64,000 nucleotides of DNA from Ignavibacteriota bacterium (GTDB lineage Bacteria > Bacteroidota > Ignavibacteria > UBA10030), in the NCBI GenBank assembly GCA_963701295.1, contig OY969585.1, positions 1,376,001 through 1,440,000 on the forward strand, given 5' to 3'. How positions within the stretch are numbered: the stretch's first letter is position 1; each line of letters opens with the position of its first letter. Of the stretch, positions 29,142-31,467 are shown one piece after another. Under the pieces are notes generated by a model. That model did not search any database. It saw nothing but the letters and a program-made list of their open reading frames with translations, and was not told the DNA's origin. The position numbers and the translations under genes were made by a program.

Positions 29142-29166
29142 TTCATAATTTTTTTATCACAATTCG

Positions 29167-29241
29167 TCGGGACGGCGGGATTTGAACCCGCGACCCCTTG
29201 CACCCCAAGCAAGTGCGCTAGCCGGGCTGCGCCACGTCCCG
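29167..29241 (-). tRNA. tRNA-Pro (TGG)
   Basis: Minus strand CGGGACGTGGCGCAGCCCGGCTAGCGCACTTGCTTGGGGTGCAAGGGGTCGCGGGTTCAAATCCCGCCGTCCCGA; acceptor stem CGGGACG/CGTCCCG, GGTTCAAATCC T-arm; CCA not encoded. Confidence 0.95.
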
Positions 29242-29316: not shown

Positions 29317-29467
29317 ACCCAACGGTAACCACCAGCCTATTGGTTACTTGTTTGTCTAATATAGCAATATGTATCACGTTTAGCAATTATGAATTTTGCA
29401 GTGAGCCTGCCCGCCATACTTTATATTTTGGCGCGCTCATTCCGCCAGCTTGAGCGCCTGGTTAGGC
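29317..29467 (-). mobile_element. attC-like site of cassette 2 (R'' and L'' clear, R' end degenerate)
   Basis: Minus-strand GCCTAACCAGGCGCTCAAGCT overlaps the gene stop codon; candidate R' GTTGGGT at 29317-29323 lacks a clear L' box. Confidence 0.55.
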
Positions 29468-29842
29468 CGCGACATTAGAAACATTTCGTGTCCGATACCA
29501 ACATAAAAGAAATAAAAAACCAGGGGTTGTAAAAACCAACCAAGCCCAGCCATTTGGAAACTTACTGGCGGTTGCAAAATGAAAGATATAAAACATTACT
29601 AAGCTTCCCACTGTGATGCTTCCTCCAATGCCTTCTTGCCACCAAGCAAGAATCATTCCAATAGAAATCCCAACAGGAAAGAATAATAGCCCAATCCATT
29701 CTGTCGGCCTAATCAGTGTAGGGCTGAATCCTTCACCTACAATGAATAATAGTATGAAGCCAATGCTCACAATACTCAACATTCTTGCTGTCCAACGAAT
29801 TATGTGGGTTAATCTAGGCTGAGACTTATTCGAATTCTCCAT
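29462..29842 (-). CDS. small 4-TM membrane protein carried as an integron-like cassette
   Basis: 126 aa, RWTAR...LAWW.EGIGG...PGFLFL; preceded by GTTAGGC (29885-29891), stop TAA lies inside GCCTAAC. Confidence 0.8.
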   Translation of the reverse strand: MENSNKSQPRLTHIIRWTARMLSIVSIGFILLFIVGEGFSPTLIRPTEWIGLLFFPVGISIGMILAWWQEGIGGSITVGSLVMFYIFHFATASKFPNGWAWLVFTTPGFLFLLCWYRTRNVSNVAA

Positions 29843-29884
29843 GTTCTCATCCTTTCATAAATATTCTAGTCATACCTTTTAGCC

Positions 29885-30152
29885 GCCTAACGGACGGATG
29901 CTAATCCCGATTTGACAAACTTGATGCTTTATATTAAGCTTTGGTCGAATCGAGGATCTCGTAAAGCGGGAGTTGCGGCACTGCAAACTTTCAAATTGTT
30001 GATAACGAAACAAGTTCATTCTGAAAAGTTTATTATTAAACATCCGAACCTCTATATGCCATGCTTAACGTACCTATGCTCATTCATAATTAGTATCACG
30101 CTTCGCGTGATTCATTCTTCTGGACAAGCCGAGCTTGAGCACCTGGTTAGGC
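29885..30152 (-). mobile_element. attC-like recombination site of cassette 1
   Basis: R'' GCCTAAC (30146-30152), L'' TGCTCAA, L' TTAGCA lacking the extra base, R' GTTAGGC (29885-29891). Confidence 0.7.
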
Positions 30153-30182
30153 GGCGAACTATCGGTCAAGAACTCTTGCAAG

Positions 30183-30872
30183 TTAAATCGCTATTTTTTT
30201 AATACTATTTCCTTTAGTTATAGCAGCAACTTTATCAGCAAGTGTTGGACTGACTTTTAGAACTTGAGCCTTGGTGAGCTTATGCCAAACAGTGAGAATT
30301 ACCTTATGGCCATCCATCTCACGCGCAGTAAGTCCATTTAATTCATATTGTGGCCAATTCTTAGAAAAAAACGCCTGAGATAAGATAACAATTCCATATC
30401 GGGAATTTGCAAGTCCATGGTCAATTGATTGCCGCAAACTATCACCAACTTGAAGCTCAAACTCATCATACCAAATTCTATAACCCATTTTTTCAAGAGC
30501 ATTGGCTAAAGGACGCACTATTACTTTTTTATCTTCTGACGCGTGAGAGATAAAAGCGTCATAACCTATATCTTCAGAATTAATTAAAGATTTCTCAAAA
30601 TCGTCCGCGCTCATTCGAAGCATAAGTCCTATGTGCATTGAGAATGCTTCGTCTGCAGATTTAAAAGCGGATTTAGGGTAAAGGTTCATCGGCGTCCCGC
30701 CTCCGACAACCCACCATTCTGGATCTTTCTTATCTGTGGTAGTAACTGAAAGAACAATATCTTCGCGACCAAGGAGATGAAAGCGTTCAGCGAAGGAAAC
30801 GCGTTTCACTTTTGTATGAGCTTCTAGCTCAACATAATCTTTCGCATGTTTGACCAGTTGTTTTAGATTCAT
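30183..30872 (-). CDS. TIR-domain protein with uncharacterised N-terminal domain (integron-like cassette)
   Basis: YDAFISHASEDK, WYDEFELQVGDSL, SRYGIVILS, WPQYEL; GTTAGGC 21 bp upstream of ATG. Confidence 0.88.
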   Translation of the reverse strand: MNLKQLVKHAKDYVELEAHTKVKRVSFAERFHLLGREDIVLSVTTTDKKDPEWWVVGGGTPMNLYPKSAFKSADEAFSMHIGLMLRMSADDFEKSLINSEDIGYDAFISHASEDKKVIVRPLANALEKMGYRIWYDEFELQVGDSLRQSIDHGLANSRYGIVILSQAFFSKNWPQYELNGLTAREMDGHKVILTVWHKLTKAQVLKVSPTLADKVAAITKGNSIKKIAI

Positions 30873-30887
30873 AGTAATGTATTTTTT

Positions 30888-31027
30888 TGGCCGCCTAACT
30901 ATGATTAGACGGACAAGTCCGGCGTAACAATATTACTCGGATTGGTCCGCGTAATATACATTACATGGATCAGTCTGCGTAATAAATGTTATCATGGATT
31001 TGTCTACTAATGTATACACTACAACTA
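30888..31027. repeat. attI-position array of 4-5 tandem 28-bp 11-6-11 dif-like units
   Basis: Units start at 30888, 30916, 30944, 30972 and (weaker) 31000; the first contains the cassette crossover core GCCTAAC. Confidence 0.65.
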
Positions 31028-31083
31028 CCCCTTGCATTCTAAGAAGGCCTTGGCACAGGCTTTGTAAATTTAGCGCTTGCGCT

Positions 31084-31112
31084 AATATAACAGTTCATTT
31101 TCAAGTTGTCAA
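31084..31112 (-). promoter_or_regulatory. Pc-like cassette promoter (TTGACA-N17-TATATT)
   Basis: Perfect -35, 17-bp spacer, points toward the cassette array. Confidence 0.65.
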
Positions 31113-31467
31113 TCCATTCGGAAGAAGCATAACATTTCGACCACTAAAAAAGGCAGCAACCATCACCGCCTCTGGTTCGAACTATGAACAGCCTGAACAG
31201 ATTGCTCTTTCATCGTCGTTCTGGAAAGGCGCAGCAGTAAAGCTCCGCGTGATCTCCACTGCCTCGGACAAACACAGCCGTATAATCTCTTTCAGATTGT
31301 CTGTATGTGCCTGAGGTGTGGGCGGGAACTCTGTCCGAAAATTTTTCTCTTTTTTATCAAAAACCTGAAGGACAAATGAATCACAATATCTGATAGAGAG
31401 ATTTATCGGATTGAATACCTAAATTCTCAACTAACAATTATGTTAAAACCTTGGATAGACTTTCTTC

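Follow-up and report, generated by a model that had tools for sequence, protein, structure and literature searches.

A repeat row beside a cassette array

The window analysed here, 64,000 nt of an Ignavibacteriota genome assembled as a single contig of 3.64 Mb, contains a row of five repeat units at 30888–31027, directly upstream of a gene cassette, and the question is whether such a row serves dif-type Xer recombination or an integron integrase (IntI). All five units are present at the coordinates that an earlier note had listed, and Tandem Repeats Finder returned the array as the top of 16 rows in the window (period 28, score 76). The repeats and their 28-bp period are real, but the period is not exact, contrary to what had been claimed: the TAA/TTA register slips by one base in two units. 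Units 1, 3 and 4 have the 11-6-11 layout with TAA and TTA, whereas unit 2 reads 12-5-11, with a spacer of 5 bp, and the right arm of unit 4 is off by one base. Genome-wide, TAA-N6-TTA sites lie 28 bp apart in a single pair among 914 sites, namely units 3 and 4. The 36/56 period-28 matches at the locus are a level reached by seven genome regions, and the other six are, by eye, low-complexity short-period repeats. A public metagenome contig is identical over 30912–31062, although it may stem from the source sample and hence not be independent.

Beyond TAAC, the left arm of unit 1 is first-cassette sequence that varies from copy to copy and lies outside the platform. Because all the arms are alike, 22-bp palindromes with 6-bp spacers between them (consensus from other copies, TTACATGGACTAGTCCATGTAA) are another possible frame for the array. 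Their centres are spaced 28, 28 and 29 bp apart, and the copy comparisons described below favour this frame over 28-bp units. The features of the locus, in window coordinates, are as follows.

30893..30899, minus strand: attI R box, G-TTAGGC; crossover between 30899 and 30898, bases past GTTA cassette-derived
30904..30910, minus strand: attI L box, GTCTAAT, 4 bp from the R box (TAA-N6-TTA)
30905..30927, unstranded: palindrome 1, the L-box arm plus a back-to-back arm; offset 20–21.5 in attI types A, B and C
30933..30954, unstranded: palindrome 2, 22 bp, likely accessory integrase site; 27.6 bits with a model from other copies
30961..30982, unstranded: palindrome 3, 22 bp, likely accessory integrase site; 28.5 bits, the best site of the genome
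30989..31010, unstranded: palindrome 4, degenerate; core at offset 105 in 14 of 21 B1 copies
31084..31112, minus strand: predicted Pc, TTGACA-N17-TATATT with TG; 11/12 consensus match
30183..30872, minus strand: cassette 1 gene, 229-aa TIR-domain protein, candidate anti-phage gene; Pfam TIR_2, 2e-19
29885..30152, minus strand: attC of cassette 1, 268 bp, long form of the genome's attC family
29462..29842, minus strand: cassette 2 gene, 126-aa DUF7670 membrane protein (domain match)
29390..29467, minus strand: left half of the cassette 2 attC, cut off and fused to DNA upstream of tRNA-Pro
29166..29241, minus strand: tRNA-Pro(ggg), left neighbour outside the platform
31134..31229, unstranded: dispersed non-coding repeat fragment in the place that the intI start occupies in complete copies; no IntI similarity

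The predicted Pc, a sigma-70-type consensus match about 75 bp past the array, is directed into the cassettes; a matching element is present in many related copies and lies directly before the intI start where intI exists. Unconstrained folding of the 268-bp attC gave no canonical stem, and Rfam matched the tRNA alone.

Some homologous platforms adjoin integron integrases

The array and its upstream DNA recur in 8 of 15 congeners at 72–85% identity; in 45 genomes of other genera, all matches were under 35 bases. Pattern scans added 14 loci in species genomes and 30 in metagenomes. The 58 matches collapsed to 37 at 97% identity and, after L159, L162 and L163 had been dropped as repeats, to 34 distinct copies, in which the motif is kept next to cassette arrays. 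Every named record among the copies is titled as an Ignavibacteriae, Ignavibacteriaceae, Bacteroidota or Bacteroidetes MAG. The core was fixed by the search pattern in scan-derived copies, and it is nearly invariant in BLAST-found copies too.

As the earlier note had proposed, this is an attI position: the platform is constant, the cassette varies at GTT and intI lies beside homologues. The R-box flank varies in every copy directly left of TAAC, the sequence change falls exactly after G-TT, and the first cassettes are whole. At the array itself the first cassette end matches the crossover bases at 10/10; among the 17 copies with a detectable attC half, 16 match at 8/10 or better and 11 at 10/10, with 4 of those 10 bases fixed by the search pattern.

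An intI gene lies 296–302 bp from the core, on the opposite strand, in 4 of the 37 copies (intact in L049, L054 and L161, broken after residue 65 in L048). Decayed intI fragments adjoin five others, 21 have none in at least 600 bases and seven are too short; with other queries, applied to 10 loci, remnants appeared in two of those 21. The intact proteins, 319 aa long, form clade B (SH-aLRT 100 in a quick tree) and share 56–64% identity with the two other clades of the genus, A and C. In alignment they carry the I2-region insertion that is absent from XerC and XerD, and the two that were scanned scored 442 and 450 bits against TIGR02249 (cut-off 265). Throughout the copies, intI or its remnants are the only recombinase-like sequence found alongside. 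The copy at 30888–31027 has no IntI similarity in the 1935 bases beyond its core and is not a complete integron, there being no adjacent intI.

Seven of the 10 tested copies, B2 platforms and one of the 28-bp type (B1), adjoin decayed clade-C IntI fragments; judged by these neighbours, platform type and IntI clade do not correspond one to one and the types are mosaic. In L151, intI is deleted nearly from start to end behind the platform, its start joined to its end, and several integrase-less platforms stop at or right after the intI start; integrase-less platforms thus appear to arise through intI loss. The same 60-bp sequence occupies the intI-start position in L047, L051, L141 and L145 and in the genome near G000:C1 98944 and 1046712, a hint that integrase-less platforms of two types may have spread as a unit.

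The core recurs across a dispersed integron

The genome is a dispersed integron: its one intact intI stands against at least 12 attI-like platforms, which belong to several types, and heuristic scans gave many arrays with about 160 attC sites in all (97–270 bp), the attC sites having the usual four boxes. Its 14 phage-integrase-family matches include that single intact integron integrase (TIGR02249, 453 bits), a XerC-like protein and XerD. The attI linked to the intact intI consists of an L box, 4 bp and an R box, which gives a TAA-N6-TTA core, with two 23-bp palindromes 39 bp apart ahead of it. A scan with the core pattern returned 8 sites in the genome and 0 in a reversed control: the intI-linked site, six integrase-less copies of that site and unit 1 of the array. 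The L-box geometry and a near-identical 15-bp core recur in all of them, and inspection by eye added four attI-like sites whose core has 7 bases. Because the intI-linked attI and its six integrase-less copies share the geometry, the dif-looking TAA-N6-TTA is, by this comparison, the attI core of the lineage.

Cassette-sized stretches are 97.7–99.4% identical between integrase-less arrays of the genome. The array at 30888–31027 has no 250-bp stretch at 95% identity in common with the other 11 arrays compared.

Phased palindromes as probable integrase sites

On sequence, the array has every testable feature of an attI site: the GTT crossover, the inverted L box, homologues with an I2-bearing intI and a Pc match. 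We consider it probable that it is an integron attI platform without intI and that its extra palindromes bind additional integron-integrase molecules. The array is a variant of attI and no new recombination system; what sets it apart, as far as the copies tell, is the presence of up to four 22-bp palindromes behind the L/R core, spaced 28 bp, or 39–40 bp in sister platforms.

In 21 B1 copies, palindrome cores lie at offsets 20, 48, 76 and 105 (20, 18, 19 and 14 of 21, respectively), and in 13 B2 copies at offsets 20 and 59 (13 and 11 of 13), with extra cores in some at 87–88 and 116. Type A has them at 20.5 and 59.5–60.5, and type C at about 21.5. The first palindrome, which includes the L box, is therefore common to all types, and the next lies either 28 or 39–40 bp further, two distances one helical turn apart. 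Such phasing leads us to infer a protein lattice on double-stranded DNA. The accessory arms also follow the L arm of their own type: at position 9, type-A arms have C (27 of 32) and B1 arms have A (73 of 74). The likeliest binder of the palindromes would be IntI. In L054, L068, L139 and L147, both palindrome halves shift together from GGA..TCC to AGA..TCT, and either selection for symmetry or template switching could produce such paired changes.

In integrons, the integrase brings the L/R core, as double-stranded DNA, together with an attC whose bottom strand is folded, exchanges one strand at G-TT and leaves replication to resolve the junction. By the same steps, IntI would here pair the L/R core with an attC bottom strand, one strand would be exchanged at G-TT and, once replication had resolved the junction, the new gene would stand first behind Pc. 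The 22-bp palindromes would be back-to-back IntI arms, the counterpart of DR1 and DR2 in attI1. With arms on one helical face, whether at 28 bp or at the 39–40 bp of the sister types, the row would load more integrase, and the lattice might perhaps occlude promoters. Extra IntI sites are the natural reading because attI1 needs both accessory sites, DR1 and DR2, for optimal recombination (PMC3518468). With this precedent and arms that track the L arm, the suggestion in the earlier note that the repeats are accessory binding sites gains ground.

The single IntI of the genome, about 1.5 Mb away and with the same attI core, would serve the site in trans. Such use is plausible, since core, palindromes and promoter are intact and the attI core beside this clade-A integrase is nearly the same. 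The genome has no B-clade IntI, and the accessory arms of its own IntI differ (TGC rather than GGA at positions 7–9). Against present activity, the array heads only two cassettes, the last attC is broken and no stretch is common with other arrays; alternatively, it would be a frozen relic that still expresses the TIR cassette.

A reading as an attC-like, single-stranded attI was rejected: the plus strand gave z −2.85, but its long hairpin is centred on unit 3, away from the crossover.

Comparison with dif

The GC-skew maximum of the genome is at 2,711,790, and dif lies there (G000:2711762-2711789), 1.3 Mb from the array. A dif-derived pattern found one site in the genome and one in each of 14 of 15 congeners, with 0 control hits. 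Unit 1, which carries the crossover, matches this dif at 11/28, below the median of 13 for TAA-N6-TTA sites, and its spacer at 1/6. Units 3 and 4 match at 17 and 18/28, levels reached by 50 and 17 of 913 other TAA-N6-TTA sites, units included (top 2–5%), and the best unit in a congener copy reaches 21. Spacers are often TATACA or TATATA, as in dif.

With the dif arms named XerC-side and XerD-side by analogy with E. coli, left arms match the XerD-side arm at 7–9/11. B1 arms resemble the XerD-side arm (3.84 of 8) about as they do their own L arm (3.97), B2 arms score 4.58 with each and type-A arms score 3.59 of 8 with the XerD-side arm, whereas the XerC-side arm matches at chance level (1.6–2.0 of 8). 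The earlier observation that the left arm of unit 3 matches a XerC arm at 9/11 is correct for the E. coli sequence quoted, but with dif of the same genome the likeness is to the XerD-side arm, at 7/11. None of 102 arms starts with TTATG like the XerD-side dif arms, although the dif search pattern itself required TTATG.

The likeness to dif/XerCD sites and pdif therefore comprises the 28-bp unit, TAA-N6-TTA, an AT-rich spacer and a partial XerD-side arm. Unlike them, the array lies off the terminus, lacks the XerC-side arm and TTATG, has symmetric arms and has a crossover unit that is not dif-like; on these comparisons it is not a dif site. The type-A arms, being about as XerD-like, fit the descent of IntI from Xer proteins (PMC7790495).

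Alternative readings of the palindromes

An unlikely alternative makes the palindromes operators, at which a separate transcription regulator would control Pc or the intI promoter. They do lie between Pc and the first cassette, their most constant bases form a GA-N4-TC dyad, and the second arm often lacks its TAA end. Yet no comparable palindrome was found elsewhere in the genome, where the 22-bp model built from other copies gives 28.5 and 27.6 bits here and next 17.1 inside other DNA; palindrome 1 includes the L box; and there is no such site before recA or the one HTH-S24 repressor gene. With neither a LexA DNA-binding domain found nor a dyad before recA or the S24 repressor gene, we also rejected an SOS-box reading.

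Slightly less likely again is a division of labour in which the core is an IntI site and host XerD, or XerCD, occupies the accessory units in an architectural or gating role. The dif matches of units 3 and 4, of the congener copy and of the left arms speak for it, as do the dif-like spacers and the XerC and XerD genes in the genome. The missing TTATG and the chance-level XerC-side arm speak against it, both arms are alike in the fashion of a homodimer, and type-A arms, with other bases, are about equally XerD-like, possibly through family ancestry. Its strongest form strikes us as improbable: a dif-derived lattice would load host XerD beside IntI, and XerD would serve a dozen dispersed platforms as architectural cofactor or cell-cycle gate for cassette capture. 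If true, such a lattice would preserve a stage in how integrons descended from Xer systems.

Similarly improbable, the extra units may derive from the L-box region by neutral tandem duplication or be its insertion scars. Arm similarity could stem from duplication alone, unit number varies, type-C platforms have about one palindrome, and near-palindromes can persist through template switching. What argues against neutrality is that arms are conserved and spacers drift (in the 10 BLAST-found B1 copies), that spacing shifts by about 11 bp with phase kept and that the units are unlike attC sequence. Scars of repeated insertion, which the earlier note had entertained, are unlikely because the units are conserved in 34 copies with differing first cassettes.

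Highly improbable is the proposal, also made there, that attC cassettes enter at dif-like units through the action of XerC/D or a Xer-like recombinase: the 11-6-11 geometry recommends it, but insertions occur at unit 1 alone, which is less dif-like than the median site and whose spacer is unlike the bases before GTT in attC sites, a mismatch that counts against Xer insertion because Xer exchange needs spacer homology, and the intI-linked attI of the genome shares the core, the neighbours are true IntI, with homologous platforms directly before intI, and the attC sites have the usual boxes.

Relation to known integrons

Among known systems, the closest to the array are attI1, CALINs, dif-type sites and attG. 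The core spacing of attI1 is N7, as in type C and in other IntIs of the family, whereas that of the array is TAA-N6-TTA; moreover, its Pc lies wholly upstream of the intI start. The class 1 attI1 is otherwise alike in its inverted L/R core, G-TT crossover and cassette-renewed R box, with accessory sites upstream and then Pc and a divergent intI beyond (PMC3518468, PMC4792948). It has two direct repeats in about 65 bp, as opposed to up to seven arms of alternating orientation in about 115 bp. The array also resembles CALINs, in print as attC cassettes without a nearby intI for which mobilisation in trans has been proposed (PMC4889954); use in trans and CALINs with their own attI are likewise in print (PMC4889954, 10.1101/2025.06.18.660453, PMC9892861), the latter in a figure legend (PMC9892861). 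It differs in keeping a full attI and a consensus Pc ahead of only one whole attC and one left half, where a CALIN comprises at least two attC sites, and in belonging to a set of 12 or more attI-like platforms, of several types, whose genome has a single intact intI. Like attG, which has been likened to dif-like core sites, it concerns IntI cassette insertion at chromosomal sites away from the integron (10.1101/2022.09.11.507474); unlike attG, it is no chance target, since the platform is conserved, is homologous to intI-linked attI and has a promoter of its own.

The earlier note had allowed that the motif might match an attI already known for a standard IntI. It does belong to a standard IntI as its attI, but in the literature searched (partial full text, with figures, supplements and the INTEGRALL attI set outside the search) we found no description of an attI with a phased palindrome row.

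Beyond class 1, little is known of attI recognition by integrases. Because the two bind weakly in vitro, attI–integrase structures are lacking (PMC7790495); the array is a candidate high-affinity substrate. The genus offers a natural attI series in which the number of palindromes runs from one to four, the core has 6 or 7 bases and the spacing changes by one turn; the series adjoins three integrase clades about 60% identical and so provides material to probe accessory sites. Arrays scored as integrase-less can retain a complete attI together with its promoter, and many expression platforms may therefore be run by a single integrase. IntegronFinder would miss such platforms because it searches by exact match for class 1–3 attI alone (PMC4889954).

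History and neighbourhood of the locus

The closest congeners lack the stretch from about 29390 to 31324 at this place, and in two of them tRNA-Pro and yceD are about 550 bp apart; none of 29 yceD upstream regions (1.5 kb) from relatives holds the array. Because L017 and L170, from other congeners, carry unrelated cassette ends that abut yceD or the DNA upstream of tRNA-Pro, the interval seems to be a recurrent site for arrays. Insertion at a tRNA 3′ end was rejected, as the insert sits upstream of the tRNA 5′ end, and so was an inverted second attI at the far end of the array, since the L-arm look-alike at 29345–29358 is tRNA-Pro upstream DNA kept in array-less congeners. The repeat fragment at 31134–31229 recurs at six other places in the genome at 80–86% identity; it also lies upstream of an attI-like site at G000:C1:3449601.

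The cassette 1 protein matches PADLOC PDC-S66 (1.5e-64) and ThsB (6.6e-39) and has 4924 relatives; this TIR gene, under a near-consensus promoter, is a candidate phage-defence cassette encoding a widespread protein.

Elsewhere in the genome, the C-terminus of its own IntI (L004:1183-2142) matches clades B and C and not its closest relatives in clade A, which suggests a chimera, and a 45-residue intI end fragment lies at G000:C1:581744-581878. A 1.41-kb element (G000:C1:226041-227450) with a transposase-like ORF, IS110-like by eye, has at least eight more copies at 98.7–100% identity, and the copy inspected interrupts an attC right after its first box.
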